Counted from the first letter of the stretch, positions 8,672-41,877 are shown. The stretch is 64,000 nt of DNA from an uncultured Rikenellaceae bacterium (GCA_964514725.1 CAZEUL010000018.1:1211-65210), one strand, 5' to 3'. Numbers and translations: made by a program. Notes: generated by a model from the sequence alone, not told the origin.

Positions 8672-9022
8672 ATGAGTAATGAATGGCTGGTTTTGTTCTT
8701 TCTCACAGGGGCAATATTTGTTGGTCTGGTATTGGTCCTGTCAGGAATAATCGCCCCTAAATCAATTAATCCTCAAAAATTTGAACCATATGAATGCGGC
8801 ATTCCAACGCAGGGAGTGACATGGCTTCAGTTTAATGTAGGATATTACCTTTTCGCAATACTTTTTCTGGTTTTCGATGTCGAGACAGTGCTGGTATTTC
8901 CCTGGGCTGTTGTTATGAAAGAGGTCGGACTTATTGCTTTTATTGAAATAATAATATTTTTTCTCATCCTTGGCCTGGGATTACTCTATGCCTGGAAAAA
9001 ACATGCTCTTGTATGGGAATAA
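8672..9022 (+). CDS. nuoA: NADH-quinone oxidoreductase subunit A
   Basis: PYECG and [22 protein letters not shown] motifs. Confidence 0.97.
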
Positions 9023-9573: not shown

Positions 9574-9599
9574 TCATCCGGAAATGAACAAAGCATGCC

Positions 9600-10055
9600 A
9601 TGGAAAATGCAAAACTAGCTGATTTTATAATATCCCTTGATAAAGAAGCTGTAATCAAGGAAGGGAAGCAGTTTATTGAAGTAACCGTCCCTCTTTCAAA
9701 TTTAATTACTCTGGCAAAACAGCTCAAAGAAAACAGAGAAACACAGTTCGATTTCCTTGCCTGCCTTACTGGTATTGATTATGGCGTTGATCTTGGTGTT
9801 GTTTATCATTTAAGATCCACCTCGTTAAACCATACAATGGTTTTGAAAACAAGGATCCCGGACAGAGAAAGACCTGTTGTGGATTCTGTCGCAGAAATCT
9901 GGAAAACCGCTGAATACCATGAACGTGAGGTCTATGACTTGCTGGGTATCCGATTCTCAAATCACCCAGATCTGAGACGATTTTTCCTTGAAAATTCAGC
10001 AGGTTACCCGTTAAGGAAGGATTACGTTGACGATGTAAATATTGTCATTAAATGA
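9600..10055 (+). CDS. nuoC: NADH-quinone oxidoreductase subunit C
   Basis: HEREVYDLLGIRFSNHPDLRR...YPLRKD motif. Confidence 0.96.
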   Translation: MENAKLADFIISLDKEAVIKEGKQFIEVTVPLSNLITLAKQLKENRETQFDFLACLTGIDYGVDLGVVYHLRSTSLNHTMVLKTRIPDRERPVVDSVAEIWKTAEYHEREVYDLLGIRFSNHPDLRRFFLENSAGYPLRKDYVDDVNIVIK

Positions 10056-11182
10056 TCATGGAAGAACAGGTAAAAAACAATGCCATCGGGGAACAGGAGG
10101 AATATGTAATAAACATGGGCCCTCAGCATCCATCAACTCACGGAGTGCTGAGGCTCGTAGTTTCCTTAAAAGGAGAAATTGTAACAAAAATAGAACCTCA
10201 TATCGGCTATATTCACAGAGGTATTGAAAAAATGTGCGAAAGCATGACCTACCCCCAGATAATTCATCTTACCGACAGAATGGATTATCTGTCTGCGCAT
10301 ATTAATAATGAAGCTGTCTGTCTGAATATTGAAAAAGCCCTTGAAATTGAAATTCCTGAAAGGGTAAAAGTCATCAGGACAATAATGGCAGAACTTACCA
10401 GAATTCAGTCTCATCAGCTATTCTGGGCCACATTTGGAATGGATCTCGGGGGTCTGACATGTTTCTTTTATGGTCTTCGCGACAGGGAAAAAGTGCTTGA
10501 TATTTTCGAGGAGACATGCGGGGGACGTATGATAGTAAGTTATAACTGTCCGGGCGGGCTGATGTATGATATTCATCCAGGATTCCAGAAACGAGTAAAG
10601 GAATTCATAAAGTATTTCAGGAAGACTCTGCCTGAATACGATCAGTTGCTGACAGGTAATGTGATTTTCAGAGAGAGAACCCGTAATATTGGAAGACTCA
10701 CCCGTGAAGATGCCATTGCATATGGGGTTTCAGGACCTGTCGGCAGAGCATCAGGATTTTCCTGTGATGTCAGGAAAAAAGAACCGTACAGCGCTTATGA
10801 TCGGGTTAATTTCAATGAGGTACTTTTTAACGATGGTGATACCTACCACAGATATCTTGTCAGGATGGAAGAGATGAGAGAATCAATGAATATCATTGAC
10901 CAACTGATAGATAATATTCCCGAGGGACAATTTGCTGTGAAAATGAAACCCATAATTAAATTACCTGAGGGGGAATATTATCAGAGGGTAGAGACAGCTC
11001 GTGGCGAGCTGGGAGTATATATTATCAGCGATGGTAACAAGTACCCTTACAGGATAAAGTTCCGATCACCTAATTTTGTTAATCTTTCTGTTCTCAATCT
11101 TATAGCAAAAGAATTCAAAATAGCAGACCTTGTTGCAATAAGCGGATCCCTTGACCTTATAATACCTGATATTGACAGATGA
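10052..11182 (+). CDS. nuoD: NADH-quinone oxidoreductase subunit D
   Basis: [32 protein letters not shown] and DLIIPDIDR motifs. Confidence 0.97.
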
Positions 11183-11226
11183 GGAGTATTGCGATAACAC
11201 ATTTTAATATTGTAGAAAATAAATAT

Positions 11227-12315
11227 ATGCCATTTGATATTTACGATTTTACATCCCTTACCAGGTGGATCGATACAAGTCTTCATAATGTGATGTCTCC
11301 ATTCTGGGCAGTGGTTATTGAATTGTTCATAGTCGGGGTGCTTTTTCTTCTCTTTTATGCCTTAATAGGTCTTTTTCTTGTATATGCAGAGCGTAAAGTT
11401 TGTGCTTTCATGCAAAACCGGCTTGGGCCCAACAGGGTTGGACCATTTGGAATCTTCCAGACGATTGCGGATCTTATTAAGCTGCTCTTTGTAGAACTTG
11501 TTCCAATAAAAAATGCCGATAAGTTTCTGTTCAATCTTGCTCCTTTCATAGTTATTATCACTTCATTTATGGCGATTGCAGCAATACCCTTTGCAAAAGG
11601 ACTTCATGCAATTGACCTGAATATCGGAGTCCTTTATCTTATTGCTGTGTCCGGATTGGGAGTCATCGGGATCCTTCTGGCCGGATGGTCGAGCAACAAT
11701 AAATACTCACTTATTGGGGCAATGAGGAGCGGAGCTCAGATAGTAAGCTATGAGCTGTCCGTAGGTCTTTCGCTTATTACAGTAGTTATTCTTGCCGGCA
11801 CTATGCAGCTTTCGGAGATTGTTGAAGCCCAGGCTACAGGATGGTTCATTTTCAAAGGACATATTCCGGCTTTCATAGCATTTGTAATTTTCCTTATTGC
11901 CAGCACTGCGGAAACAAACCGGGGTCCGTTTGACCTTGCCGAGGCAGAATCAGAGCTTACTGCAGGATACCATACTGAATATTCGGGAATCAAATTTGCT
12001 TTTTTCTTTCTTGCAGAATATATGAATATGTTTATTGTTGCTTCAATTGCAGCAACAGTGTTCCTTGGAGGCTGGATGCCCTTACACATAGGATACTGGG
12101 GTGGATTTAATCATTTGATGGATTTTATTCCTCCTTTTTTATGGTACCTTTTAAAAACTTTCTTTGTAATATTTCTGATGATGTGGTTCAAGTGGACTTT
12201 CCCCAGGTTAAGGATAGACCAACTTTTAACCCTTGAATGGAAATATCTTCTGCCAATAAATCTATTTAATGTTGTCTTAATGTCGTTTGTTGTGCTTATG
12301 GGATGGCATTTCTGA
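11227..12315 (+). CDS. nuoH: NADH-quinone oxidoreductase subunit H
   Basis: [35 protein letters not shown] and PRLRIDQL motifs. Start at 11227 assumed; 11179 is also possible. Confidence 0.95.
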
Positions 12316-12343
12316 TCAAAAGTTTTATGAAAGAGAACTCTTA

Positions 12344-12823
12344 ATGAGAAGTATAGCAAATTATATAAAAAAAATTATAAGCGGTATCTGGTCTCTGCTC
12401 AAAGGGATGAAGGTAACCGGTTCATATTTTTTCAGACCCTCGACAATAGTAACCCAAAAATATCCAGGCAACCGTAGGGAACTTGTTATGTTTGAAAGGT
12501 TCAAGGGCGAGGTAATAATGCCTCATAATGAAAAAAATGAACATAGATGCACAGGATGCGGTATTTGCGAAATCAATTGTCCTAACGGGACCATAGAGGT
12601 CATCGCAAAAACTATTCTTACTGATGATGGCAAAAAGAAGAGAGCTATTGACAAACATATTTATCGTCTTGGAATGTGTACATTCTGTGCCCTCTGTGTT
12701 AAAACATGCCCTTCAAATGCACTTGCATTTTCCCAGGAATTTGAACATGCTGTGTTTGACAGGGCCAAACTTATTAAAATTTTGAACAAACCAGGATCCC
12801 AATTGATGAAAGGAGTTGAATGA
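12344..12823 (+). CDS. nuoI: NADH-quinone oxidoreductase subunit I (2x[4Fe-4S])
   Basis: CTGCGICEINCP and CTFCALCVKTCP. Start at 12344 avoids overlap with nuoH. Confidence 0.95.
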   Translation: MRSIANYIKKIISGIWSLLKGMKVTGSYFFRPSTIVTQKYPGNRRELVMFERFKGEVIMPHNEKNEHRCTGCGICEINCPNGTIEVIAKTILTDDGKKKRAIDKHIYRLGMCTFCALCVKTCPSNALAFSQEFEHAVFDRAKLIKILNKPGSQLMKGVE

Positions 12824-13371
12824 TGACTTTGAACCAGCTGATGTTTATACTGTTTTCAACTATCATAATTGTATTTTCCATACTGACCGTTACTAGCAGA
12901 AGAATTTTAAGGGCAGCAGTTTATCTTCTTTTTGTCCTTGTCGCAACAGCAGGTCTTTATTTCATGCTTAATTATGAGTTTCTGGCTGCGGTGCAGTTGA
13001 CATTATATGCGGGAGGTATTGTTGTTCTGATAATCTTTTCAATACTTCTTACCAGTCATATCGATCTGAAGTTTGAACCTGTTGGCTTGAAAAAGTCACT
13101 TTTTTCTGCTATGGCTTCAATAGCAGGTGCAATTCTGACCATTATTACAATACTTGATTTCAGGTTTTCAGCTACTTCAGAGGCTGCCAGAGAAGTGAAC
13201 ATGAGGCTTGTGGGAAAATCCCTCCTCTCAGTAGGAAAAGATGGTTATGTGTTGCCTTTTGAGGTGATTTCAGTACTCCTGCTGGCATCAATGATAGCAG
13301 CAATCGTAATTGCCAGGAAGGGCGGACCTGAAAATCCCCGATCTCAAAAAATAAATCAAAAAATAATATGA
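12820..13371 (+). CDS. nuoJ: NADH-quinone oxidoreductase subunit J
   Basis: AAVQLTLYAGGIVVLIIF and LPFEVISVLLLASMIAAI motifs. Confidence 0.95.
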   Translation: MMTLNQLMFILFSTIIIVFSILTVTSRRILRAAVYLLFVLVATAGLYFMLNYEFLAAVQLTLYAGGIVVLIIFSILLTSHIDLKFEPVGLKKSLFSAMASIAGAILTIITILDFRFSATSEAAREVNMRLVGKSLLSVGKDGYVLPFEVISVLLLASMIAAIVIARKGGPENPRSQKINQKII

Positions 13372-13685
13372 ACGCAGGAGTTCCATTAAGCTATTTTCTG
13401 ATCCTGGCTGCAATCATGTTCTTTGCCGGAGTTTACGGGTTCCTTACAAGAAGAAACCTTATAACAATACTAATGTCTGTAGAGTTGATTCTTAACTCCG
13501 TTAATATTAATTTTCTGGCATTCAACAGGTTTCTGTTTCCACACAAACTTGAGGGATTTTTCTTCAGCCTGTTCATAATAACTGTAGCCGCATCCGAGGC
13601 AGCAGTAGCTATAGCAATTATAATCAATATTTATCGCAGGTTCACAACAATTAATGTTGAAGATGTTGATGTTATGAAATTCTAA
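13368..13685 (+). CDS. nuoK: NADH-quinone oxidoreductase subunit K
   Basis: RRNLITILMSVELILNSVN and VAASEAAVAIAI motifs. Confidence 0.96.
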   Translation: MNAGVPLSYFLILAAIMFFAGVYGFLTRRNLITILMSVELILNSVNINFLAFNRFLFPHKLEGFFFSLFIITVAASEAAVAIAIIINIYRRFTTINVEDVDVMKF

Positions 13686-13706
13686 TATTTACAATTTACG
13701 GCAGAA

Positions 13707-15632
13707 ATGCTTATGACAAATTATACATATACAGTCCTGATACTGCTAATTCCTTTCCTGGTTTTCATATTGCTAGGTCTTACAGGCCACCACCTTAAAT
13801 CAAAACTATCAGGAATTCTTGGCACAGTAGGAATGGGGACAGTCACCTTTCTCTCCTACCAGACAGCCTTTTATTATTATTTTGCCAGTGATAAAATAAA
13901 TGATGCTTTTCAGAAAGTCATAGCGTATAATGGGACATGGTTGAAGTTTAATGATAATCTACATATTGACATGGGTATTTTGCTTGATCCCATTTCAGTA
14001 ATGATGTTGATAGTTGTATCAACAGTGTCATTTATGGTTCATATTTACAGTCTTGGATATATGAAAGGGGAAAAAGGATTTGAGCGTTATTATGCATTTC
14101 TTTCCCTTTTTTCTTTCTCAATGCTTGGACTGGTGGTAGCTACAAACATTTTCCAGATGTACATCTTCTGGGAACTTGTTGGGGTATCTTCATATTTGCT
14201 TATAGGTTTCTATTATATGAAACCTGAAGCCGTTAGGGCTGCCAAAAAAGCTTTTATAGTAACCAGGTTTGCCGATCTTGGATTTCTGATAGGGATCCTT
14301 ATCCTTTCATTCAATACGCGAACATTTGATTTTATTACCCTTACTGATCCATCAGGACCGGCAATAAATATGGGGCCGGGTATTAACTTTCTTGGACTCT
14401 CTGTCATGACATGGTCAATGATTTTTATTTATATGGGAGGTGTTGGTAAATCGGCAATGTTCCCGTTTCATATATGGCTTCCTGATGCAATGGAAGGTCC
14501 GACTCCGGTATCTGCCCTCATACATGCGGCGACAATGGTAGTAGCTGGAGTATACCTTGTTGCAAGAATGTTTCCCATTTACGTTTTATCTGCACAGCCG
14601 GCATTGGAAGTGGTGGCATATATTGGTGCATTTTCGTCGTTATTTGCAGCAATAATAGCATGTACACAGATTGATATAAAAAGGGTTCTGGCATACTCTA
14701 CAATATCCCAGATTGGATATATGATGCTTGCATTGGGTGTTTCAGGTTATGGAGGTCGTGAGGGGCTAGGTTATATGGCATCTATGTTCCATCTTTTTAC
14801 ACACGCCATGTTTAAAGCATTGCTTTTTCTTGGAGCCGGTGCAATAATCCATGCTGTGCACAGTAATTTTATGACTGATATGGGAGGTCTGAGAAAATTC
14901 CTGCCTGTCACTCATATCACTTTCCTGATAGCATGCCTTACTATTGCAGGTATCCCTCCTTTTTCCGGGTTCTTCAGCAAGGATGAAATACTGGCTGCGG
15001 CATTTCATAATAATAAGCTGCTTTTTTCTGTGGAGTATTTTGTTGCTGGAATTACTGCCTTCTATATGTTCAGACTTTATTTCAATATTTTCTGGGGAGA
15101 AGATAAAAGTTATCACCATACTCCGCATGAAGCACCTCTAAGCATGACAATTCCACTGATAATATTAGCAGCAGGAGCTGTATTTTCGGGATTTATCCCT
15201 TTCAATGAATTGGTTACCTCAGATGGGAGAGCCTTTGAGACAGAAATTGAAAGGAATATCGCAGTACCATCAGTTTTAATTGCTCTTGTCGGAATAACAG
15301 CCGCATTTGTTATCTATGCCAGAAAAACAACCATACCTGACAGGCTTTCAGGGATATTTAAATACTTATATAAGTGGGCATATAATAAATTCTATATTGA
15401 TGAGATTTATTTGTATATAACAAAAAAGATAATCTTCAGATATATCTCAGAACCTGTTGCCTGGTTTGACAGGCATATAGTGGATGGGACGATGAATGCA
15501 CTTGCAGTGATGACTCAGGTTATTTCTTTCAGAATAAGGTATTTCCAGTCGGGCCAACTCCAAAAATATGCATTTGTATATGTCTCCGGAGTGGTTGCAC
15601 TGGCAGTTGTCTTAATCTATCTGTGGATTTGA
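13707..15632 (+). CDS. nuoL: NADH-quinone oxidoreductase subunit L
   Basis: FWELVGVSSYLLIGF, WLPDAMEGPTPVSALIHAATMV and HLFTHAMFKALLFL motifs. Confidence 0.97.
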   Translation: MLMTNYTYTVLILLIPFLVFILLGLTGHHLKSKLSGILGTVGMGTVTFLSYQTAFYYYFASDKINDAFQKVIAYNGTWLKFNDNLHIDMGILLDPISVMMLIVVSTVSFMVHIYSLGYMKGEKGFERYYAFLSLFSFSMLGLVVATNIFQMYIFWELVGVSSYLLIGFYYMKPEAVRAAKKAFIVTRFADLGFLIGILILSFNTRTFDFITLTDPSGPAINMGPGINFLGLSVMTWSMIFIYMGGVGKSAMFPFHIWLPDAMEGPTPVSALIHAATMVVAGVYLVARMFPIYVLSAQPALEVVAYIGAFSSLFAAIIACTQIDIKRVLAYSTISQIGYMMLALGVSGYGGREGLGYMASMFHLFTHAMFKALLFLGAGAIIHAVHSNFMTDMGGLRKFLPVTHITFLIACLTIAGIPPFSGFFSKDEILAAAFHNNKLLFSVEYFVAGITAFYMFRLYFNIFWGEDKSYHHTPHEAPLSMTIPLIILAAGAVFSGFIPFNELVTSDGRAFETEIERNIAVPSVLIALVGITAAFVIYARKTTIPDRLSGIFKYLYKWAYNKFYIDEIYLYITKKIIFRYISEPVAWFDRHIVDGTMNALAVMTQVISFRIRYFQSGQLQKYAFVYVSGVVALAVVLIYLWI

Positions 15633-15653
15633 CAAATTCATTAAAAAGAAATT

Positions 15654-17159
15654 ATGAATATTTTATCACTATTCGTACTGGTACCTGTTTTGACAATTAC
15701 AGCGATCGTTCTTTCGAGAGATAGGCGGCAGGCAAAGATGATTTCGGCAATTGGAATGAGTATTCAGATGGTTTTGTCAGGAATACTTGTTTTCCTATAT
15801 GTTTCGGCACGCAATTCAGGAGAAGCAGCGGAAATGCTCTTCGTGAATGATCTTATCTGGTTCAAAAGCCTTAACATACATTATGTTGTCGGTGTCGATG
15901 GAATTTCAGTGGCAATGATTGCTTTGACTTCCATAGTTGTATTTGCAGGTGTTTTTGCTTCGTGGGAGATGGATTATCTTACAAAGGAGTTTTTTATTTC
16001 ACTGATACTGCTGGCAACAGGTGTTTTTGGATTTTTCATCTCACTCGATCTTTTCACAATGTTCCTTTTCTATGAGCTTGCGGTTATACCAATGTATCTT
16101 CTTATCGGTATCTGGGGAAGCGGACCAAAAGAGTATTCAGCCATGAAGCTGACTCTTATGCTTATGGGTGCTTCCGCACTCCTTCTTGTAGGTATATTGG
16201 GAATTTATTTTAATTCTGCACCTTACGGTGGAAAACTGACTTTTAACATTCTTGAAATTTCAAAAGTAACAATACCGATAAAAGCTCAGTACATCTTCTT
16301 CCCTCTTACCTTTGTGGGTTTTGGGGTTCTGGGTGCCTTGTTCCCATTCCATACCTGGTCTCCTGACGGACATTCATCAGCCCCCACTGCAGTATCTATG
16401 CTGCATGCCGGTGTGTTAATGAAACTAGGCGGTTACGGGGCCTTCAGGGTAGCAATATTTCTGATGCCCGAAGCAGCTAAAGAGCTTGCGTGGATCTTTA
16501 TAATTCTTACTACAATAAGTGTTGTTTACGGGGCTTTTGGTGCAATTGTACAAAAAGATCTTAAATACATCAATGCCTATTCTTCCGTGAGTCATTGCGG
16601 CCTTGTCCTTTTTGCAATTCTTATGATGAACCAGACAGCAATGAATGGAGCAATAATTCAGATGATTTCGCATGGGCTAATGACCGCCCTGTTCTTTGCA
16701 CTCATCGGTATGATTTATAGCAGAACACACACAAGAATGATAAATGAGATGGGTGGACTTATGAAGTTCATTCCTTTTCTTTCAGTATGCTATGTGATAG
16801 CTGGTCTGGCATCACTTGGTCTTCCTGGGTTGAGCGGATTTGTAGCCGAAATGACGATTTTTGTTGGAGCTTTTCAGCATCCCGATCACTTCCACAGAAT
16901 TACTACTATAATTGCAGTTACTTCCATTGTAATAACTGCAGTTTATATCCTACGGGTTATAGCGATACTGTTGCTCGGAACATCAGAAAATGAGCATTAC
17001 TTTCATCTTACTGATGCAGAATGGTATGAAAGGATCTCAACAATCTCACTTATTGCGTTTGTAGCCCTAATCGGACTTGCACCTTTCTGGTTAACATCAT
17101 TAACTGGTACGAGTCTTCAGCCAATAATAAATAAAATATTTGCAATAAATGTTTTTTAA
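15654..17159 (+). CDS. nuoM: NADH-quinone oxidoreductase subunit M
   Basis: GVDGIS, FPFHTWSPDGHSSAPT and LMKLGGYG motifs. Confidence 0.97.
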   Translation: MNILSLFVLVPVLTITAIVLSRDRRQAKMISAIGMSIQMVLSGILVFLYVSARNSGEAAEMLFVNDLIWFKSLNIHYVVGVDGISVAMIALTSIVVFAGVFASWEMDYLTKEFFISLILLATGVFGFFISLDLFTMFLFYELAVIPMYLLIGIWGSGPKEYSAMKLTLMLMGASALLLVGILGIYFNSAPYGGKLTFNILEISKVTIPIKAQYIFFPLTFVGFGVLGALFPFHTWSPDGHSSAPTAVSMLHAGVLMKLGGYGAFRVAIFLMPEAAKELAWIFIILTTISVVYGAFGAIVQKDLKYINAYSSVSHCGLVLFAILMMNQTAMNGAIIQMISHGLMTALFFALIGMIYSRTHTRMINEMGGLMKFIPFLSVCYVIAGLASLGLPGLSGFVAEMTIFVGAFQHPDHFHRITTIIAVTSIVITAVYILRVIAILLLGTSENEHYFHLTDAEWYERISTISLIAFVALIGLAPFWLTSLTGTSLQPIINKIFAINVF

Positions 17160-17219
17160 AAAAGCCAGCTTTGTTGAACTTTATTAATCTTAATTGAATA
17201 TACTTTACATACAATTAAT

Positions 17220-18641
17220 ATGAATCCTGGGGATTTTGCATTGATGAGACATGAACTTCTTCTTACTGCTGCAGCACTTACAGTGCTGGCAGCTGAAATA
17301 TTCCATGGCTCAAAAAGCAGGAAATCAATAAGTTATTTTGCAGTTATTACTTTCTTTGTAATTACACTGGCAGGATTTCTTCCTTCACCTTCAGGAAGTC
17401 TGTTCGGCAATATGTACATTGCCGACAAGACAAGGCTGATCATGAAAAACATTCTTAATATAGGAGCTTTGCTTGTATTGTTTCAGTCTTTAACATGGAT
17501 TAATAAAGAAGAAAACCATGACAGGGTCAGTGAATATTTCATTCTGCTGATTTCAACGCTTGCCGGGATGAACTTTATGATCTCAACTGGCCATTTCCTT
17601 ATGTTTTATATTGGACTTGAACTGGCAACAATTCCTATGGCCGCTTTGGCTGCCTATAACAAATATAATAACAAATCGGCTGAGGCTGGTATTAAACTTA
17701 TTCTTATATCAGCACTTTCCTCGGGCGTTTTGCTGTATGGACTGGCGATGATATACGGCACCACCGGATCGCTTTATTTCAGTGAGGTGGCCCAGACTTT
17801 TCAAAATAATAATCTTCAGCTCCTTGGATTTATTTTCTTCTTTTCTGGGATGTCATTTAAAATATCTATTGTGCCTTTTCATCTATGGACAGCAGATGTT
17901 TATGAAGGTTCACCTGTGAATATAACATCATACCTGTCTGTAATCTCAAAAGGATCTGCAGTATTCATTTTTATTATTGTTCTGTTCACGGTATTCCCGG
18001 CTGTAATAGAAACCTGGCAGAAAGCCATATATGTCACTTCTGTTTTGACAATGACTATTGGAAACCTTTTTGCGATCCGTCAGCAAAATCTTAAAAGGTT
18101 TCTAGCATTTTCATCAATATCTCAGGCTGGCTATATTTTTCTTGGTGTGATTGGTGGCAACCAGATGGGGATGGCCTCTGTGATTTATTATGTTCTCGTG
18201 TATATTTTCTCAAATCTGGGTGCGTTCGGTGTGGTGGCTGCAATCTCAAATGCCACAGGTAAGGAGAATCTTAATGATTATAACGGACTATACCATACAA
18301 ATCCTCGGCTTAGCCTTGTAATGACCTTGGCTGTGTTTTCACTGGCCGGTATACCTCCTGTTGCAGGATTTTTCGGGAAGTTCTTCCTTTTTACTGCCGC
18401 AGCTGAAAAGGGTTATTATCTGCTTGTAACAATTGCAGTACTTAATACAATTATTTCTCTTTATTATTATCTTCTTGTTGTTAAGGCTATGTTCATAAAT
18501 GCAGATGAAACACATGTTGAAAATTTCATAAGTGATCTCCCCACACGTATCGGACTCGGAATATGTGTTGCAGGTATAATTGTGACAGGTTTTGCCAGTA
18601 TTGTTTTTGAAATAATAAGGGAAGTTAGTTTTGGAGTTTGA
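17220..18641 (+). CDS. nuoN: NADH-quinone oxidoreductase subunit N
   Basis: EAGIKL, FKISIVPFHLWTADVYEGSP and SLAGIPPVAGFFGKF motifs. Confidence 0.97.
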   Translation: MNPGDFALMRHELLLTAAALTVLAAEIFHGSKSRKSISYFAVITFFVITLAGFLPSPSGSLFGNMYIADKTRLIMKNILNIGALLVLFQSLTWINKEENHDRVSEYFILLISTLAGMNFMISTGHFLMFYIGLELATIPMAALAAYNKYNNKSAEAGIKLILISALSSGVLLYGLAMIYGTTGSLYFSEVAQTFQNNNLQLLGFIFFFSGMSFKISIVPFHLWTADVYEGSPVNITSYLSVISKGSAVFIFIIVLFTVFPAVIETWQKAIYVTSVLTMTIGNLFAIRQQNLKRFLAFSSISQAGYIFLGVIGGNQMGMASVIYYVLVYIFSNLGAFGVVAAISNATGKENLNDYNGLYHTNPRLSLVMTLAVFSLAGIPPVAGFFGKFFLFTAAAEKGYYLLVTIAVLNTIISLYYYLLVVKAMFINADETHVENFISDLPTRIGLGICVAGIIVTGFASIVFEIIREVSFGV

Positions 18642-26711: not shown

Positions 26712-27164
26712 ATGAAGGAGCTTAAAAATATGTATATCGAACAATCTGAAAAAACTCCGCTGGTTGATTTTAATAATATCACCGGTGAACTTATCCTTTC
26801 AGGAAGATCAATTCCTATTAATGCTCCAAGGATATTTGAACCAATTCTCGAATGGGTGAATGAATATATCAAAGATCCTAAACAAACAACAAATTTAAGA
26901 CTTAATCTTGAATATTTCAATACGGCATCTTCCATCTGGCTGGCAAAAATAGTAAAAGCTCTTACCAACATTGATAAGCAGGATTGTGTACTTGTTCTGC
27001 ATGTATATTTTTCAATTGAGGATTTTGATGATATAGATGATATAAAAGATGATCTGAGCCCTGTGATTGATGTTATCAGCAATTCAAAAGTAAGTGTAGG
27101 ATTAAAGATTTACGGGACAGATGAAAAGGGGAAAATATTAAAAGAATCTATGATTTTTATTTAG
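26712..27164 (+). CDS. SiaC/DUF1987-like regulatory phosphoprotein
   Basis: KTPLVDFN, GELILSGRSIP and LEYFNTASS motifs. Confidence 0.8.
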   Translation: MKELKNMYIEQSEKTPLVDFNNITGELILSGRSIPINAPRIFEPILEWVNEYIKDPKQTTNLRLNLEYFNTASSIWLAKIVKALTNIDKQDCVLVLHVYFSIEDFDDIDDIKDDLSPVIDVISNSKVSVGLKIYGTDEKGKILKESMIFI

Positions 27165-27250: not shown

Positions 27251-28759
27251 ATGCGCACATCGTGTTTTGTTCTGCTTTCAATATTTATCGTTATGAAGAC
27301 ATATTCACAGTCAGGTTCTGTTGATAGGAACCCCGCTGTTGCGGGAAGATTCTACTCGGCAGACAAAGAAACTCTTAAAAATGATCTGTCAAAATTATTC
27401 GAGAATTGTGTCAAGACACCCCATTTAAATAGAGTAAGATCTTTAATCTGTCCTCATGCGGGTTACATTTTTTCAGGTTCTGTTGCAGCCTCTGCATATT
27501 CGGCAGCCGGGAGTAAGGCTGGCTATAAAAACATTTTCATTATTGGATCAAGCCATATTATGACATTTGAAGGTGCTTCAGTCTATAATATAGGCGATTT
27601 TATTACACCCTTAGGGAAAATAAAAGTCAACCGGGAAATTGCCAACAACCTTAAGAATAACAACAAACTCTTCGATTTCCCGGTTGATGCACATATCAGA
27701 GAGCACAGTATTGAGGTGCAGGTTCCTTTTATTCAATATTATTTTGAAGGAAATCCTATGATAGTCCCGATAATAATTGGAACCAGCAATACAGCAACAA
27801 TAAAAAAGATTGCCGAGATACTAAGGCCATGGTTTAATCGTGATAACCTCTTTGTTATCAGCAGCGATTTTTCACATTACCCGTCATACAAGACAGCCAA
27901 TGAGGTTGATAAAGCAACAGCTGATGCAATCCTTACAGGGAACCCACAAACATTTCTCAACACTCTAAAAAAGAACTCATTGAGAGGAGATCCAGGACTT
28001 GCAACCAGCATGTGCGGATGGACCTCCGGATTACTTCTCCTCTATCTTTCAAGTGAAGAGAAGAACCTTGAATTCAAAAAGGTAGATTACTGTAATTCAG
28101 GAGACTCCAGATATGGAAACAAAGATGAAGTGGTAGGTTATAATGCTATTATTTTAACTCAAAAGGTTGCTTCAGGAGACAATTCAGAAAGTCTCTCTGA
28201 AAGGATCTCTTTTACCCCTGAAGAAAGTAAAGAACTTATTTCACTTGCACGCGAAAACATAAGATCGCTTCTATATGAAAATAAAAAAATTGCTGTTAAT
28301 AAAGAAAACCTTCCAGCCATATTCAATGAGCCTCTTGGTGCATTTGTAACATTAAAGATAAATCATGTGCTCAGGGGTTGCATAGGAAGGTTTATTTCAT
28401 CTGACCCATTATATCAGGTGGTAATTGAATCATCAAAGTCATCAGCCTTTGAAGATCCAAGGTTCCCTCCCCTCACTAAAGAAGAATTTAAAAAAACAGA
28501 TATTGAAATTACTGTACTGGGACCTTTAAAAAAAATAAACAATATCAGCGAGATTGTGCTTGGACGTCATGGAATATATATTAAAAAGGACTTCAGATCA
28601 GGGACTATGCTGCCTCAGGTTGCCACTGAAAATGGTTGGAGTGTTGAAGAATTCCTTGGATATACCTCAAGGGATAAGGCAGGCATCGGATGGGATGGAT
28701 GGAAAAATGCTGATATTTATATCTACGAAGGTATTGTACTGGAAGAATTGAAAAAGTAA
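27251..28759 (+). CDS. amrB: AmmeMemoRadiSam protein B (Memo)-protein A (AMMECR1) fusion with predicted signal peptide
   Basis: Memo motifs PAVAGRFY, PHAGY, GSSH, EHSIEVQVPF, SSDFSHY, MCG. AMMECR1 motifs GAFVTL, LRGCIG, DPRFPP, GTMLPQVA, DKAG. Starts at 27239 (TTG), 27251 or 27293 are possible. Confidence 0.93.
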   Translation: MRTSCFVLLSIFIVMKTYSQSGSVDRNPAVAGRFYSADKETLKNDLSKLFENCVKTPHLNRVRSLICPHAGYIFSGSVAASAYSAAGSKAGYKNIFIIGSSHIMTFEGASVYNIGDFITPLGKIKVNREIANNLKNNNKLFDFPVDAHIREHSIEVQVPFIQYYFEGNPMIVPIIIGTSNTATIKKIAEILRPWFNRDNLFVISSDFSHYPSYKTANEVDKATADAILTGNPQTFLNTLKKNSLRGDPGLATSMCGWTSGLLLLYLSSEEKNLEFKKVDYCNSGDSRYGNKDEVVGYNAIILTQKVASGDNSESLSERISFTPEESKELISLARENIRSLLYENKKIAVNKENLPAIFNEPLGAFVTLKINHVLRGCIGRFISSDPLYQVVIESSKSSAFEDPRFPPLTKEEFKKTDIEITVLGPLKKINNISEIVLGRHGIYIKKDFRSGTMLPQVATENGWSVEEFLGYTSRDKAGIGWDGWKNADIYIYEGIVLEELKK

Positions 28760-28761
28760 CT

Positions 28762-31188
28762 ATGTATCATATTGTTGGCATTTTACTGACAATAACCCTG
28801 CTATATTCCCTAAGTTACTTTTTTTTCAGGAATAAAATATTCTCTCTTCAGTTCCACCGAAAACTATGGAACCTACTTCTGGCTGTGGCGTTTCTGATTA
28901 CTGCTACCGGCGGCCTGATTCTTGCACTTCAGATTACCTATAAGTTGAATATCCCGTTTATAAAATCTGTTCTTAAATGGCATGTCGAATTTGGTATTGG
29001 TCTTGCTGCTACCGGAATAATACATTTCCTGTGGCATCTTTCGTATTTCAGGGGCATTTTCAAGTCTCATGAATCTTTAATAAGTTTCCCGGACAAATTT
29101 CCTACAAGGAACAGAGAAGAGATTAGAATCAATCTTTTCATCGTGGGTTTTGTAAGTACTGGGGTGCAGCTTCTGTTGCTCAGGGAAATGATTAATATTG
29201 CAGGGGGCTACGAATTGGTATCAGGCACATTTCTGGGTTCATGGCTTATCGGATCTGCAGCAGGAGCATTTATGGCATCAAAGTCAAATCTTGATGACCC
29301 TGGAAAAATAAACCTGATGTTCTTCACAGGGCCAGCTATTACGATTTTTCTCATGCTTCTCTTATCCCGGCTTTTTCTAAAATCGGGTGAAACACCATCT
29401 TTTCTGGCCAGTGTCATTTTCACATTGATAGTTCTTTTACCTTTTTGTTTCATTTCAGGTTTTACCTTCATAAAACTTTTAATTGAAACCGGATCTGATA
29501 ATGGCCCGGGTGCAGGTATATCATTTTCGGTTGAGACTACCGGAGGCATAATTGCAGGTATTGTAATTTCTAGTCTGAGTACTATAAGGTTAAATACTTA
29601 CCAGGCTCTGATTCTTATAATTATTCTGGGCATTTCATATCTTGTTTTGTCTTTTTACAGTTTAAAAAGACCTATTACCATTATATTTAAGATCATTATC
29701 CTGGCAGTTTCATTTTCTGTAATTGTAAGTTCTCCCGACAGACTATTCAGACAATTCTTGCTCAGGGGAATTAAAATCATCCAATCAAAAGACACACCAT
29801 ACGGGAACATTACTGAGGGAGAGTACAACGGAGAAAAAAGTACATTCTATGATCACAGGTTAATTTTTTATCATGAAGATGTCATCGAACGCGAAGAAGA
29901 TATTCATTATGCAATGCTTCAGACTTCAAATGTTGAAAGAGTTCTGCTGATATCAGGATCGCTTGGTGCTCACTTCCGTGAATTACTTAAATATCCGGTA
30001 AAAGAAGTGCAATTTGTTGAACGGGATCCTTCTCTTATAAGAGCCGAGGGGGTATCTGATACTACAGGAAAGATAAATCTGGTAATTGAAAATACTGATG
30101 CTTATAACTACATAAAAAGAACTGATGAAAAATTCGATGCAGTAATTCTATTGTTACCTCCACCTTCATCGCTTCTTTTAAACAGATATTACACCTTGGA
30201 ATTTTTTCGTCAAGTTAAAAAGGTGCTGAAGCCAGGGGCTGTCTTTTCATGTTCACCAGGCATTAACCCAGACTATCTTAATGATGAGGCCGCGACCTTT
30301 TTCTCATCTGTTTACAACAGTCTTAGTACAGTGTTCAACAATGTGATTCCGATAAGCGGGAACAAATTGTATCTGATTGCATCTGATAAGAGAATCTCAA
30401 CTTCTATATGCGACCTTGTCGAGAAGAAACAAATCCGTAATACCTACGTAGGTCCAGGTTATCTATCTGATGATCTGATAACTGTTAAATCAAAAGAGAT
30501 TTTATCTGTGATTGACAAAAATATAAGGCCCAACAGGATTCTTACACCTGTTGCGGCATTTTACTATCAGATTTACAGCCTCAGCAAAAGCCAGAATCAA
30601 CGAATACCAACAATCTTCTTCCTGGTGCTTTTTTTCATTTTTCCAATTCTATATGTAAATAGAAAAAACCTTCTGATGTATTTTAGTTCTTCAGCTCTTG
30701 CGGGCTATGAGATCATTCTACTGCTTGTTCTACAATCGGCTGTAGGGAATATGTATCAGCTTACAGGTATGATAATTGCTGGATTAATGGCAGGATTGGC
30801 AGTCGGGTCAGGCATGAATATAAGATTCTTTGAAAATCACTCTTTCAGGCTTAAAGCCTTGTTACTTATTATTTATTACTGTTTAATGTATTTATTTGCA
30901 GGCAGTATAATATCTTCAGGTGATAAATTCATGGTAACAGCATCTTTGATTATTTCCGGTTTTATACCGGCAATGATAACAGGAAATATTTTCAGGGAAT
31001 TTACTGCCGTTAATAGCTTGTCGAAGGAATCTTCGGCTGTTTACGGTGCAGATCTGTTGGGATCGGCACTCGGATGCTTAGCTTTTTCAGGTCTGATTGT
31101 GCCTTTCTTGGGTATAAAACCATCGCTAATTGTTTTCCCATTGCTGGTTCTAGCAGGATACCTTTTTGCAATAATGGCAAGAAAATGA
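28762..31188 (+). CDS. Polytopic membrane protein: His-containing N-terminal TM module + membrane spermidine-synthase-like unit
   Basis: N-terminal WHVEFG...IHFLWH helix, TM block, soluble DTPYGNI...VLLISG...VERDP...DAYNY...FDAVILLLP...YYTLEFF domain, C-terminal TM block with YGADLLGSALG. Confidence 0.82.
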   Translation: MYHIVGILLTITLLYSLSYFFFRNKIFSLQFHRKLWNLLLAVAFLITATGGLILALQITYKLNIPFIKSVLKWHVEFGIGLAATGIIHFLWHLSYFRGIFKSHESLISFPDKFPTRNREEIRINLFIVGFVSTGVQLLLLREMINIAGGYELVSGTFLGSWLIGSAAGAFMASKSNLDDPGKINLMFFTGPAITIFLMLLLSRLFLKSGETPSFLASVIFTLIVLLPFCFISGFTFIKLLIETGSDNGPGAGISFSVETTGGIIAGIVISSLSTIRLNTYQALILIIILGISYLVLSFYSLKRPITIIFKIIILAVSFSVIVSSPDRLFRQFLLRGIKIIQSKDTPYGNITEGEYNGEKSTFYDHRLIFYHEDVIEREEDIHYAMLQTSNVERVLLISGSLGAHFRELLKYPVKEVQFVERDPSLIRAEGVSDTTGKINLVIENTDAYNYIKRTDEKFDAVILLLPPPSSLLLNRYYTLEFFRQVKKVLKPGAVFSCSPGINPDYLNDEAATFFSSVYNSLSTVFNNVIPISGNKLYLIASDKRISTSICDLVEKKQIRNTYVGPGYLSDDLITVKSKEILSVIDKNIRPNRILTPVAAFYYQIYSLSKSQNQRIPTIFFLVLFFIFPILYVNRKNLLMYFSSSALAGYEIILLLVLQSAVGNMYQLTGMIIAGLMAGLAVGSGMNIRFFENHSFRLKALLLIIYYCLMYLFAGSIISSGDKFMVTASLIISGFIPAMITGNIFREFTAVNSLSKESSAVYGADLLGSALGCLAFSGLIVPFLGIKPSLIVFPLLVLAGYLFAIMARK

Positions 31189-31199
31189 TAGCATTTTGG

Positions 31200-31207
31200 T
31201 AAATTTG
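31200..31207 (+). promoter_or_regulatory. Internal -7 box (TAAATTTG) upstream of amrS
   Basis: Exact TAnnTTTG in the 42-nt gap before amrS. Confidence 0.5.
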
Positions 31208-31230
31208 CTGATTGCGATAAAAACAAAAAA

Positions 31231-32367
31231 ATGAAGTATAAGGATAATCAAATGACTAAAAGGGAATTTATCAGAAAGTGTGCAGTCTTTTCGACTGGAT
31301 TGTTCTGTATTCCTTGCAGCAGGGGGTTTTCAGAGACTTCCGGCAGTGCGGAAGGAATTTACATGAGGGAGGCAATGTTCCAGGAAGTTACGGCAAGAGG
31401 AATCATGTGCAGGATCTGCCCAAATGAGTGTGTTCTTAAAGAAGGAGAGGTTAGCAAATGTAATAACAGAAAAGTCAGAAAATCAAAGTTATATACAATG
31501 GCTTACGGAAATCCCTGTTCGGTAAACGTTGACCCGATGGAAAAAAAGCCACTATATCACTTTTTGCCTGGCACAAAAGCATTTTCAATAGCAACGGCGG
31601 GATGCAATCTTGTCTGCCTCAACTGTCAGAATTGGACGATTTCCCAAACTTCGCCTGATAAGACAAGGAATTATGACCTTATGCCTGAAAAAGTTGTCGA
31701 AGAATGTATCAACAAAGGCTGCAGTACGATAGCTTATACATATTCAGAACCTATGACATTTTATGAATATGTTTATGAAACGGCTGCAATTGCAAGAAAA
31801 GCAGGAATTAAGAATATCGTAAAGTCCAATGGATATATTTACCCGGATCCGCTCAAAAAGCTTTGCAGTGTGATAGATGCAGCAAATATTGATTTAAAAG
31901 CTTTCGATGAAAGTACATATCTTAAATTATCAGGAGGAAAGCTTCAACCGGTACTTGATTCATTAAAAGTATATAAAGAGATGGGTATATGGCTGGAAAT
32001 CACGAATTTGATTGTTCCAACCTGGACTGACGATCTTGCTGAGATAAGGAAAATGTGCAAGTGGCTTAATGATAACGGATTCAATAAAGTTCCAATTCAT
32101 TTCAGCAGGTTTTTTCCAGTTTATAAGCTTGAACAACTGCCTCCGACTCCTATTGATACTCTCAAAAAAGCTGCGCAGATTGCTTTGGAAGAAGGCATCC
32201 AATATGTTTACACAGGTAATGCACCTGGTAATGAAATCTCGGATACGCGATGTCCTACATGTAAGACCGACCTTATAACCAGGGTAGGTTTTAAAGTCAC
32301 ATCTAATACACTTAAGAACGGAAGGTGCAGCAAATGCGGCCGTATTATTGAAGGTGTGTGGGCATAA
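31231..32367 (+). CDS. amrS: AmmeMemoRadiSam radical SAM enzyme with Tat-like leader
   Basis: CNLVCLNCQNW (CxxxCxxC), DPMEKKPLYHFLPG, AYTYSEP, NIDLKAF and HFSRFFP motifs. Leader MTKREFIRKCAVFSTGLFC starts at the Met at 31252. Confidence 0.94.
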   Translation: MKYKDNQMTKREFIRKCAVFSTGLFCIPCSRGFSETSGSAEGIYMREAMFQEVTARGIMCRICPNECVLKEGEVSKCNNRKVRKSKLYTMAYGNPCSVNVDPMEKKPLYHFLPGTKAFSIATAGCNLVCLNCQNWTISQTSPDKTRNYDLMPEKVVEECINKGCSTIAYTYSEPMTFYEYVYETAAIARKAGIKNIVKSNGYIYPDPLKKLCSVIDAANIDLKAFDESTYLKLSGGKLQPVLDSLKVYKEMGIWLEITNLIVPTWTDDLAEIRKMCKWLNDNGFNKVPIHFSRFFPVYKLEQLPPTPIDTLKKAAQIALEEGIQYVYTGNAPGNEISDTRCPTCKTDLITRVGFKVTSNTLKNGRCSKCGRIIEGVWA

Positions 32368-39420: not shown

Positions 39421-41877
39421 TCACTTTATCAAAGAATATTTAAAAGTTCTGGAAACAGAATTGTTTCTTACAACTATGAAATATATACCGGGCTTATGAC
39501 CTGAAATATCAATAAGTAATTTGGGATCTGAATATGATTCTTCTCTGAGAATGCATTGCCCTGTTACATTGAAGATACTAATATGGCAAGGAATATTTCC
39601 GTTTGTTTCATTAAAAGAGATATTAATCAATCCATGCCCAGGATTTGGATAGACCACTACATCTGATATCTTTTGGTCCACTACATTATCCACAAGGGGA
39701 TTTATCTTCAGATCATCGATTGCCCATCCCCAACCACGGGCATAGGGATCGGCATATAACCTGAATCGTATAAGCATCGAATCGCCATTGGATATTTTGT
39801 CACTGATTTTGGGATAGAAGGTATGTTTCACCATCATTGACTCATCTCCCACATAAGTTGAATTCTGCCCCTCGATTGAACTGTTATAAGCTTCTTCCCA
39901 AGTTGAAAGAAATCTGCTGTCGTAGCCATCAGCAAGACTGAACCAGTTTTTACCGAAATCTTTTGAACCTTCTATTATAACATAATCATAGAAATCAGAA
40001 AATCCGTAAATAGATCCTTCAGCTCCTGGTTCGACCAGAACTACTTCATCGTATGAAATCACCATACCTGATGCATCAAAAATGACAGGATGTCTAAGCA
40101 CCGAACTGAACTCAAGGCTCGCATAATCCTTATCAGGGCTTTCATAAGGATGTTGTGAGTGCAGGCCATTTGAACTGAAATTAACAGGTCTTGTAATTTC
40201 AAATCCTGAATTGAAAAAGTCAGAAGCAGCATTTGAAAAATCGGTAGAAAAGCTTCTGACCGTAGTGCCAAGAGCTTCTATCCTTATTGAGTAAAATCCG
40301 TCTGAGGGTAGTTTTCTGGTATTATGCCCTGCTGCTTTATCAACTGCAACAAATCTGTAATTTAAAATATCACCTCCTTTCAAGTGCTCTGGCTTTACAT
40401 CAAGATTAAGAAGGTAATTATTGTCCGGACGCTGTTTCAGACCCAGAAACCGGCTTTCCCCTTCGTTTATTTTATATTCTATGTAGACAGTATCTATTCC
40501 CAGATTATCAGTTACTTTGGCTGTCAAATTTATCGAATCTATCTTTTCGAAAAAATAATCGGTTTTTGAATGAGTGATTACAGGTTTGACTGTATCGGTA
40601 CCAATAAAAACTGAATAAGGCTTTTTTTGTGCAACAGATGGAGACCTGTATATTCGCTGGAAATCGTCAATTGCGTAGAAGTAATAATCCAGCTTCGTAT
40701 TGTAAGATAAAATGTTAATCTTTCGAGTAAACAGATTTTCTGAAGTTAAAGCCGACATTATAAGGGTATCGGATGTTTTAAATCCATCAAATGAATAAAC
40801 AAGTCCGACATTGTCTCTGTTAAACAAAGTATCTGATTTTATAATTGCACCTATTTCTATTTCTGAAATATGTTCTTCGGTATCCTTCAATTCCCTTGGG
40901 AGTATTCTTGTATTAATCCATCCGAGATCTCCAAGAATTGACATGGTCAGTTTGCCAGGATTATGTATTGCCTCACCTCTGTCTATATAGGGAGTCATGA
41001 GTGCATTTTCCTTTTCTGTCCTTGTTTCATCAAGGTGAGAAACACTCGAGCCCGAATCCCATATTGAAGGGCTGTAGAGCCTTGCCCTTCCACCTGCAAG
41101 ATATTTCTTTGTCAGAGGTCCGTCGAAATATAGTTGTCCGCCTACAAGTTCCCTGTATAGAGCTTCAGTATTCTGACTAAATAACAATGTATCTGTAAGT
41201 CTTTTTCCATCAAGATTTTCAACAAAAAGGTCGTAAATGACAGGAATATTGCCAAGTCCGTATGATCCTGTATTATTTTCAACATCCATACTGTCGAAAA
41301 AACCCAGCCCATGGCATAGTTCATGAATAATTACAGTTACAAGGTCATATTTGGTTGCGGGTGTTTTTCCGTCTGTAGGATAATACCAACTGATATTACT
41401 ATTTAATACAAGCTCCACGTCTGCCTCATAATCTTCATTAAGGCTTTTCCCTGATATTTTTTCAGCGACTGAGACAGGATAATAGGCCCTGGGCAAAAAA
41501 GCATCAATACCCCATCCTCCTGCAAAGGCTGTAATAGAGGAATTGCCAAGAACTCCGCTGGAAGAGATTTTAGTCCATGATGCTTTGATTGTCATTTTCA
41601 GGTCAGGAGGCAGAACAGACTCCAGAATAGCGACTGCGTATTCCATAGCTTTTTTCGCATCAGGAGTAAAACCTGAATAAGTCACATTAATAATTCCTCC
41701 ACCTTTGGAAACAGATCTGTTAAAGAATTCCTTGGGCGGAGGAATATAAATTGATGTAACTTTATTACCAGCATAGCAAACACCCGTAACAGATTTATTT
41801 CTTATCAGTTCCTGGGCATTTATGCTGCAAAGTATAAATGTGATTAGAAAAGCTGATAAAATGAAATTTCTTTTCAT
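39421..41877 (-). CDS. T9SS-secreted putative zinc metallopeptidase
   Basis: Signal peptide ending NA-Q, IIHELCHGLGF (HExxHxxG) motif, C-terminal T9SS domain (VYPNPGHG...GIYFI...TFK). Confidence 0.85.
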   Translation of the reverse strand: MKRNFILSAFLITFILCSINAQELIRNKSVTGVCYAGNKVTSIYIPPPKEFFNRSVSKGGGIINVTYSGFTPDAKKAMEYAVAILESVLPPDLKMTIKASWTKISSSGVLGNSSITAFAGGWGIDAFLPRAYYPVSVAEKISGKSLNEDYEADVELVLNSNISWYYPTDGKTPATKYDLVTVIIHELCHGLGFFDSMDVENNTGSYGLGNIPVIYDLFVENLDGKRLTDTLLFSQNTEALYRELVGGQLYFDGPLTKKYLAGGRARLYSPSIWDSGSSVSHLDETRTEKENALMTPYIDRGEAIHNPGKLTMSILGDLGWINTRILPRELKDTEEHISEIEIGAIIKSDTLFNRDNVGLVYSFDGFKTSDTLIMSALTSENLFTRKINILSYNTKLDYYFYAIDDFQRIYRSPSVAQKKPYSVFIGTDTVKPVITHSKTDYFFEKIDSINLTAKVTDNLGIDTVYIEYKINEGESRFLGLKQRPDNNYLLNLDVKPEHLKGGDILNYRFVAVDKAAGHNTRKLPSDGFYSIRIEALGTTVRSFSTDFSNAASDFFNSGFEITRPVNFSSNGLHSQHPYESPDKDYASLEFSSVLRHPVIFDASGMVISYDEVVLVEPGAEGSIYGFSDFYDYVIIEGSKDFGKNWFSLADGYDSRFLSTWEEAYNSSIEGQNSTYVGDESMMVKHTFYPKISDKISNGDSMLIRFRLYADPYARGWGWAIDDLKINPLVDNVVDQKISDVVVYPNPGHGLINISFNETNGNIPCHISIFNVTGQCILREESYSDPKLLIDISGHKPGIYFIVVRNNSVSRTFKYSLIK

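Follow-up and report, generated by a model that had tools for sequence, protein, structure and literature searches.

A candidate extracytoplasmic AmmeMemoRadiSam system with a conserved membrane partner in an uncultured Rikenellaceae bacterium

In a 64,000-nucleotide stretch of DNA from an uncultured Rikenellaceae bacterium (GCA_964514725.1 CAZEUL010000018.1:1211-65210; hereafter the window, with positions counted from its first letter), we analyzed three co-oriented genes at 27251-32367 (+), arranged in the order amrBA-mem-amrS. They code for a fusion of AmmeMemoRadiSam proteins B (Memo) and A (AMMECR1), an 808-residue membrane protein for which we use the working name Mem, and the AmmeMemoRadiSam radical S-adenosylmethionine (SAM) enzyme AmrS. 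Radical SAM enzymes need SAM and a low-potential reductant, and hence they are treated as cytoplasmic. We propose that this operon specifies an AmmeMemoRadiSam (Amr) system working outside the cytoplasm, in which Mem would supply what an exported radical SAM enzyme lacks, and we put the probability of this proposal at roughly 0.55. That an Amr system works outside the cytoplasm and requires Mem as its partner in the membrane is a wider claim, which we consider more likely than not. Three independent lines of evidence point to the periplasm: a signal-like peptide on AmrBA, a twin-arginine translocation (Tat)-like leader on AmrS, and the predicted orientation of the soluble domain of Mem. Both the extracytoplasmic location and the functional linkage of the genes are well supported computationally. 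The features of the locus are as follows.

27251-28759 (+): amrBA, AmmeMemoRadiSam protein B (Memo) fused to protein A (AMMECR1), 502 amino acids (aa) from the ATG at 27251; Pfam and NCBIfam matches above cutoffs
27251-27310 (+): Sec-type signal-like peptide of amrBA (MRTSCFVLLSIFIVMKTYSQ), first 20 residues; n-h-c layout, conserved in relatives
27332-28150 (+): Memo (AmrB) domain; PF01875, 2.5e-56; TIGR04336, 1.4e-70
28241-28732 (+): AMMECR1 (AmrA) domain; PF01871, 5.5e-48; TIGR04335, 5.1e-45
28762-31188 (+): mem, 808-aa polytopic membrane protein, adjoining amrS or amrBA across phyla
28762-29052 (+): N-terminal three-helix module of Mem (H32, H74, H88, H92), found in Bacteroidales-type Mem only; modelled helices 2-23, 29-60 and 65-97
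29113-29736 (+): first six-helix repeat of Mem plus helix 7, aa 118-325; from AlphaFold2 helices and hhalign to the C-terminal repeat
29770-30561 (+): spermidine-synthase-like (class I SAM-fold) domain of Mem, predicted to be periplasmic and catalytically degenerate; from Foldseek, alignment and charge bias
30592-31182 (+): helix 8 plus second six-helix repeat of Mem, aa 611-807; from AlphaFold2 helices, hhalign and charge bias
31231-32367 (+): amrS, AmmeMemoRadiSam radical SAM enzyme, 378 aa; TIGR04337
31231-31362 (+): Tat-like leader of amrS (MKYKDNQMTKREFIRKCAVFSTGLFCIPCSRGFSETSGSAEGIY), 44 aa; conserved residues, with RRxF[LI] at the homologous position elsewhere
31603-31626 (+): radical SAM cluster motif CNLVCLNC (CX3CX2C), aa 125-132; read from the sequence

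The genes are separated by gaps of 2 and 42 nucleotides (amrBA stop at 28759, mem start at 28762; mem stop at 31188, amrS start at 31231), in DNA with a G+C content of about 37%. AmrBA scored 237.6 bits against TIGR04336 (cutoff 26) and 153 bits against TIGR04335 (cutoff 99). AmrS scored 342.9 bits against TIGR04337 (cutoff 220), in a match that begins only at aa 52, and 4.3e-17 against the radical SAM family PF04055; its CX3CX2C motif is invariant in an alignment of AmrS proteins (alignment A1). Because the AmrA, AmrB and AmrS models each matched above their curated cutoffs and the genes are clustered, the locus qualifies as an AmmeMemoRadiSam system on all of the defining features examined. 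An initial annotation of this DNA had described three tightly spaced, co-oriented genes for a Memo-AMMECR1 fusion, an 808-aa membrane protein with a histidine module and a SAM-fold domain, and a radical SAM enzyme with a Tat-like leader. All of this was borne out by the profile matches, by the 17-helix AlphaFold2 model of Mem with its PF01564 match, and by the conserved 44-aa extension of AmrS. A scan for promoters and terminators gave the same counts as in shuffled sequence, Bacteroidota promoters lying outside what the scan covers.

The leader of AmrS was compared among the 120 closest homologs (71-100% identity), 104 of which are exactly 378 aa long. In these 104 proteins, K10 and F13 are present in 100%, R11 in 99%, K15 in 91% and S9 in 86%, with L or I at position 14. 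The resulting clade motif, S-K-R-x-F-[LI]-K, is followed by a mildly hydrophobic stretch and then by a variable polar one. The window's own version reads T-K-R-E-F-I-R-K, without two consecutive arginines, and continues into a weakly hydrophobic h-region (CAVFSTGLFCIPC) and a polar c-region (SRGFSETSGSAEG). At the homologous position, RRxF[LI] is found in Desulfobacterales, Poribacteria, some Bacteroidales and others. Distant examples are MNRREFLK (locus L036), LSRREFIE (L041), VNRREFLQ (L035), LTRREFLK (L055) and MKLTRRDFIKRTLIWGGSLVFSPYPVFA (L063), and four Bacteroidales loci (L011, L012, L015 and L027) have RR as well. The maximal hydropathy over 15 aa is 1.2-1.8 in the Tat-class leaders of AmrS, versus more than 2.7 in those of helix-anchor type. 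As the homologous position reads as a textbook twin-arginine motif in more distant leader-bearing AmrS proteins, we assign the window's leader, in its K-R form, to a genuine family of Tat signals; Tat signals with KR are known to occur naturally.

A check of the leaders in homologs had been proposed in the initial annotation, and its outcome, conservation among AmrS homologs and canonical RR Tat signals in other phyla, favours the reading given there. It had also raised the prospect that AmrS starts at Met45 (31363), and this is disfavoured by the homologs, only 2% of which have Met at that position; a further internal methionine, Met49, is conserved in the near clade. Inside the hydrophobic region of the leader, residues at 31291-31317 (aa 21-29) are near-invariant, with S21 and G23 at 99%, P28 at 96% and C26 at 92%. 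Such invariance is unusual for a cleaved signal peptide and may point to a chaperone-binding site or an uncleaved anchor. Elsewhere in the window, a gene at 3078-4151 (-) codes for a 357-aa xylose-isomerase-like TIM-barrel protein (PF01261) with a textbook twin-arginine leader, MDRRKFIETSGAAAGAAMLSS (motif MDRRKFIETSGAAAGAAML). On account of this leader, the organism probably uses the Tat pathway.

AmrBA homologs start at the ATG equivalent to 27251, and the N-terminus that this start yields has the layout MR / TSCFVLLSIFIVM / KTYS-Q (n / h / c), in which Met15 is a possible alternative start. In the close relatives L001-L012, L015 and L034, this n-h-c peptide has an uninterrupted, in-frame and hydrophobic counterpart. 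Other lineages have lipoprotein-like N-termini with a lipobox-like Cys, such as ...LRTC/NSQ and ...LVFLCSC/SNS, and altogether the N-terminus of AmrBA is signal-like or lipoprotein-like at 34 of 41 loci. The Sec-type leader that the initial annotation had placed on the fusion corresponds to this signal-like peptide conserved in relatives, and is left in doubt by Met15, which is also conserved in the near clade. Its premise that the Amr triad is simply cytoplasmic elsewhere did not hold: AmrBA export appears widespread and extends to loci with a leaderless amrS and no Mem, as in Prevotella. Exported-looking AmrBA occurs with leaderless AmrS at L062, L068, L078 and L079 (Prevotella), at L030 and L069, and also at L054 and L067. 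Since several loci pair a putatively exported AmrBA with a cytoplasmic AmrS in this way and have no Mem, the pattern suggests that different Amr steps can take place on opposite sides of the membrane, with the substrate crossing it. AmrBA export is, to our knowledge, absent from descriptions of the family.

Linkage of mem to the amrS leader was assessed in a genome scan with the AmrS alignment, which gave 80 loci at one genome per species, each of them searched with the window's proteins. Among the assessable loci, Mem was encoded nearby at 39 of the 43 with a leader-bearing amrS (24 with KR, 13 with RR and 2 with helix-type leaders; 4 without Mem), versus 3 of the 18 with a leaderless one (15 without Mem). 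Fisher's test returned p = 3e-8 for this association, and p = 2e-4 after removal of the 24 Bacteroidota KR loci, values that overstate the independence of loci related by phylogeny. Mem was present at all 27 loci combining an exported-looking AmrBA with a leader-bearing AmrS and at 2 of the 5 where such an AmrBA accompanies a leaderless AmrS; it tracks the AmrS leader better than the AmrBA signal.

The converse search, with an alignment of four Mem sequences against metagenome contigs, yielded 63 assessable Mem loci, 57 of which have amrS or amrBA within 6 kb. The amrS genes at these loci code for a Tat-like leader in about 41 of 46 cases (including four RR motifs missed by the regular expression and counted by eye), for a helix-type N-terminus in 1, and for no leader in 4. 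In an all-against-all clustering of neighbours, only AmrS, AmrBA and Mem were conserved across phyla, the flanking ligA, secA, argS and ffh genes and a SiaC-like gene being common to close relatives only. The co-occurrence of leaders with the membrane gene across genomes, a test proposed in the initial annotation, was thus found, and the linkage holds in both directions. On the strength of this linkage, the status of Mem as a dedicated fourth component of this Amr variant is well supported computationally.

Mem also adjoins amrS in Desulfobacterales, Thermodesulfovibrionales, Planctomycetales, Lentisphaerae, Omnitrophota, TA06 and unclassified bacteria. The order amrBA-mem-amrS is often repeated and recurs in both Bacteroidota and Desulfobacterales. 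The family is large: clustered at 50% identity, 1,530 representatives reach E<=1e-30, and architectures of about 710 aa and of about 810-840 aa are both common. A rough, low-resolution neighbour-joining tree of AmrS cores placed the state with both Tat leader and Mem in at least two deep groups; within Bacteroidota, a clade that has neither (Prevotella and others) came out near the one that has both.

Several loci depart from the common arrangement. At six (L106, L114, L130, L139, L140 and L160), the contig extends for 3.8 kb or more in each direction from mem, with no amr gene nearby and no other conserved neighbour found. A metagenome-assembled genome (MAG) of Desulfobacterales (L063) has tandem AmrS paralogs at 3512-4561 and 4823-5998, both with RR Tat leaders, beside a single mem. 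At L120, L135 and L137, Memo and AMMECR1 are encoded by two genes next to mem and to an amrS with a Tat-RR leader, and the latter two loci have a fused amrBA as well. Two MAGs are labelled Woesearchaeota (L033 and L058); L033 is a 5-kb contig coding for an AmrBA with a signal, a fragment of Mem and an AmrS with a Tat-RR leader in the bacterial style, a combination that may reflect mis-binning or horizontal transfer. The cultured Mangrovibacterium marinum DSM 28823 (L020) has the complete set, with AmrBA, an AmrS with a KR leader, and a Mem of 827 aa that includes the histidine module.

An AlphaFold2 model of Mem built with 45 homologs (predicted local distance difference test score 83.6, predicted template modelling (TM) score 0.86) shows 17 membrane helices, with aa 337-600 folded into a soluble domain. 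The helices before (aa 116-330) and after (aa 606-808) this domain are homologous according to hhalign (97.8%, E 8e-13). Because the hhalign register pairs helices 1-6 with helices 9-14, Mem is modelled as a pair of six-helix repeats in parallel orientation, connected by a hairpin (helices 7 and 8) whose loop contains the soluble domain. When the modelled first half was searched with Foldseek, about 45 of the top 50 neighbours were major facilitator superfamily (MFS) transporters, the best being the 14-helix EfpA, and none was significant (E>=0.32, query TM-score <=0.55). A Pfam scan of Mem gave no MFS match. We therefore use "MFS-like" as a lead and not as a statement of membership. Five acidic residues embedded in the membrane are conserved (E142, E151, E258, E650 and D764).

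The loops of Mem differ in charge according to the side of the membrane. Those opposite the soluble domain have a mean of 16.8 Lys and Arg residues, versus 1.4 on the same side as the domain. The bias alternates from one loop to the next and was observed in each of the 37 homologs assessed, which come from several phyla. By the positive-inside rule, a bias of this kind predicts that the soluble domain is on the periplasmic side, as the initial annotation had proposed for the SAM-fold domain.

The only significant family match in Mem is to Spermine_synth (PF01564, 1.1e-14, aa 381-498), and its scores against every SpeE equivalog model are far below cutoff. Foldseek matched the soluble domain to Thermus SpeE (1uir) with an E value of 6e-12 and a TM-score of 0.65 over 287 columns, confirming in the model a full SpeE fold made of an N-terminal beta domain and a Rossmann domain. 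E420, equivalent to the acidic residue that binds ribose, does not vary in three Mem alignments (A2-A4), and a phylum-wide alignment has it in 35 of its 37 sequences; D446, the adenine Asp, does not vary in A2 or A4 and is present in most of the phylum-wide sequences. The catalytic motifs have diverged. GGGEG is replaced by SGSLG in the window's Mem and by GGGLxG in distant members, and D-x-x-D-P by L-L-P-P-P and by N-L-P-[DEP]-P, respectively. The acidic residue of GGG[DE]G that recognizes decarboxylated SAM (dcSAM) and the first catalytic Asp are gone family-wide; the second catalytic Asp is gone in the window's clade (LLPPP) and retained in many distant members (NLPDP). With the aminopropyltransferase motifs gone, we rejected the idea that Mem is a working spermidine synthase. 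As E420 and D446 are retained while the dcSAM-recognizing and catalytic acids are lost, the domain looks like a binder of an adenosyl ligand rather than an aminopropyltransferase.

In Bacteroidales-type Mem, the repeats are preceded by the histidine module. Among 69 diverse representatives, H74 and H88 are conserved in 100%, H92 in 97% and H32 in 81%. A single helix bears both H74 and H88 at a distance of 14 residues, a spacing seen in di-heme cytochromes b. The module matched DUF4405 over the full length of the model with E values of 0.009-0.026 in 2 of 5 sequences, below cutoff, and cytochrome b561 families with E values of 0.008-0.18, also below their cutoffs. Heme binding by the module is thus put forward as a hypothesis.

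The model that we infer from these features covers export itself, the binding or transport of SAM, the binding of heme, and the substrate. In it, the AmrB-AmrA fusion would be exported by the Sec pathway through its N-terminal signal peptide. AmrS would acquire its iron-sulfur (Fe-S) clusters in the cytoplasm and then be exported in folded form by Tat through the S-[KR]-R-x-F-[LI]-K leader. Mem, as a 14-helix MFS-like protein, might export SAM or an adenosyl relative and dock it beside AmrS. Its assignment as SAM supplier, which we infer tentatively, follows from the finding that the sole extra gene travelling with exported AmrS codes for a transporter-like protein with an outward-facing adenosyl-binding fold. 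Alternatively, AmrS may use SAM catalytically, so that little resupply would be needed. In Bacteroidales, the histidine-rich three-helix module could carry electrons across the membrane in the manner of a b-type cytochrome. The substrate would be expected to be a molecule of the cell envelope. Taken as a whole, a first periplasmic radical SAM pathway, in which an MFS-SpeE fusion exports and presents SAM, a heme-b module delivers electrons in Bacteroidales and an envelope component is modified in many anaerobic phyla, is a speculative picture that we would not expect to prove right in all its parts.

A number of observations weigh against an extracytoplasmic system supplied by Mem. Export of AmrS and AmrBA is read here from sequence alone. 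The window's clade has K-R in 100% of AmrS leaders instead of RR, a search of the 64-kb window found no TatA-like motif by regular expression and no tatA or tatC gene, and the conserved Met15 of AmrBA (27293) could be a cytoplasmic start. In Prevotella-type loci, where AmrBA looks exported and AmrS is leaderless, the components need not share a compartment. The linkage has exceptions of both kinds: four or five Mem-linked amrS genes are leaderless (L054, L067, L119, L131 and L156), the last four forming a clade with the N-terminus MKKV[KR]CLLCP..., and three or four leader-bearing amrS genes have no mem nearby (L036, L041, L052 and L066). The MFS resemblance has E values above 0.3, and the assignment of the histidine module to cytochromes b is below threshold. 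Donors at the level of quinol are poorly able to reduce radical SAM clusters, a task that carriers of low potential in the periplasm of anaerobes might perform. Finally, we know of no SAM exporter.

Some of the same evidence could be read otherwise. It is conceivable, though rather doubtful in our view, that the system is extracytoplasmic and that Mem flips or exports its substrate or product, be it a lipid, an isoprenoid or a polyamine-like cation, which the SpeE-like domain would bind or modify and hand to AmrS and AmrBA. The closest structural neighbour of Mem, weak as the match is, is the lipid transporter EfpA; the acidic residues in the membrane would fit a cationic substrate, the second catalytic Asp survives in many distant Mem proteins, and Memo contexts are reportedly linked to isoprenoid modification. 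However, Mem follows the location of AmrS and not that of AmrBA, loci with an exported AmrBA and a leaderless AmrS being mostly without it. The invariant residues of the soluble domain are the adenosine-binding ones, and the supply of SAM to a periplasmic radical SAM enzyme would be left unexplained. A second reading takes its cue from the near-invariant residues within the h-region of AmrS, from the lack of a clear conserved AxA cleavage site in its leader, and from five loci (L037, L046, L051, L065 and L066) that have strongly hydrophobic, helix-like N-termini instead of Tat motifs. The leaders would then be uncleaved anchors tethering AmrS and AmrBA to a complex with Mem, with the catalytic side uncertain. 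We regard this as improbable as a separate account: positive charges precede the hydrophobic segment, so that the positive-inside rule would put the catalytic domain outside anyway, and unless the segment fails to insert, tethering is a sub-variant of the extracytoplasmic system proposed here.

A wholly cytoplasmic system seems more improbable still. AmrS and AmrBA would start at internal methionines, or have vestigial leaders as in NarG, and Mem would be an ordinary membrane-bound polyamine aminopropyltransferase next to amr genes. This accords with the conservation of Met15 and Met49 in the near clade, with the shorter AmrBA picked by the gene caller in L001, with KR in the leader rather than RR, and with the annotation of Mem homologs as spermidine synthase in the sources. 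It is opposed by the amino-acid-level constraint on the AmrS leader and its relatives with full RR signals and h-regions, by the rarity of Met at position 45, by the loss of the catalytic Asp of SpeE and of the dcSAM-recognizing acid in a domain predicted to be outside, and by the linkage of mem and amr genes in both directions, with a gene order shared by Bacteroidota and Desulfobacterales. The extracytoplasmic reading, with Mem as partner of an exported AmrS, is therefore the one that we retain.

If true, a widespread radical SAM family that is targeted to Tat and has a membrane partner of its own would show how such chemistry is moved out of the cytoplasm, and there is a realistic chance that it would reveal a new cell-biological principle. 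It would also give a concrete handle on the long-unsolved function of the Memo/AMMECR1/AmrS triad, eukaryotic homologs of which are disease-linked. Carriers of Mem include Bacteroidota, Desulfobacterales, Planctomycetota, Lentisphaerota, Omnitrophota and others. The question is testable, in that it concerns a compartment and a candidate cofactor-supply protein and has a cultured carrier in M. marinum.

Other features of the window were recorded alongside the operon. Directly upstream of amrBA, a gene at 26712-27164 (+) codes for a 150-aa protein of the SiaC family (PF09345, DUF1987). It is kept there only in close Bacteroidales relatives (L001-L007, L009-L012, L015 and L034; the contig of L008 ends there). 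As it is confined to close relatives, in which the neighbouring housekeeping genes are shared too, we rejected it as a member of the system, and it probably lies outside it. The gene run at 8672-18641 (+) resembles an 11-subunit NADH:quinone oxidoreductase (nuo) operon without NuoEFG, as judged only from the sizes of open reading frames, helix counts and N-termini. At 39421-41877 (-) and 54773-57583 (-) are genes for an 818-aa protein with a type IX secretion C-terminal sorting domain and a 936-aa protein with a C-terminal FGE-sulfatase (formylglycine-generating-enzyme-like) domain.

Searches of the accessible literature gave no account of an exported AmrS, of a Mem partner or of periplasmic radical SAM enzymes; a study of Memo contexts that lay outside this search (Burroughs et al. 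2019) may list a SpeE-like neighbour. Among characterized proteins, Mem resembles the aminopropyltransferases with N-terminal membrane domains of PRK03612 in having helices followed by a full SpeE fold, with a match over aa 271-540 at 2.4e-24. It differs from them in its score (85.6 bits versus a cutoff of 472), in the second six-helix repeat after the domain, in the replacement of GGG[DE]G by SGSLG or GGGLxG, in the loss of the first catalytic Asp, and in the predicted periplasmic side of the domain. We take COG4262 and the NCBI "fused MFS/spermidine synthase" entries to be of the same kind as PRK03612. With 14-helix MFS proteins of the DHA2 type, such as Mycobacterium tuberculosis EfpA, Mem shares the modelled arrangement of two parallel six-helix repeats and a central hairpin; in contrast to them, it has a 270-aa enzyme-fold domain in the hairpin loop, and it matches them without a significant score in sequence or structure (E>0.3).

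MsrPQ (YedYZ) offers an analogy only. In that system, a Tat-exported periplasmic enzyme receives electrons from a heme-b membrane partner; here, a putatively Tat-exported redox enzyme is paired with a membrane module in which H74 and H88 are spaced 14 residues apart. There is no membership by sequence, the module of Mem has three helices fused to a transporter-like protein, and the putatively exported enzyme is a radical SAM protein, for which a far lower redox potential is needed. The closest characterized radical SAM relatives of AmrS are the PflA-family activases of glycyl radical enzymes, with which it shares its core (TIGR02493, 1.1e-17). AmrS scores far below the cutoffs of that family and has extra N- and C-terminal cysteine motifs, and no glycyl radical enzyme is encoded near amrS at the locus. 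Tat-exported Fe-S proteins (HybA, DmsB, NrfC and Rieske proteins) have in common with AmrS a leader of the twin-arginine type and Fe-S clusters needed before export, although the leader of the window's AmrS has K-R, and we know of no radical SAM enzyme among them. The known AmmeMemoRadiSam system (TIGR04335, TIGR04336 and TIGR04337) is represented here by the same three families, adjacent to one another and with the radical SAM motif intact. What sets this variant apart is that proteins A and B are fused and bear a signal-like peptide, that AmrS has a Tat-like leader, and that Mem is inserted between them and conserved across phyla.

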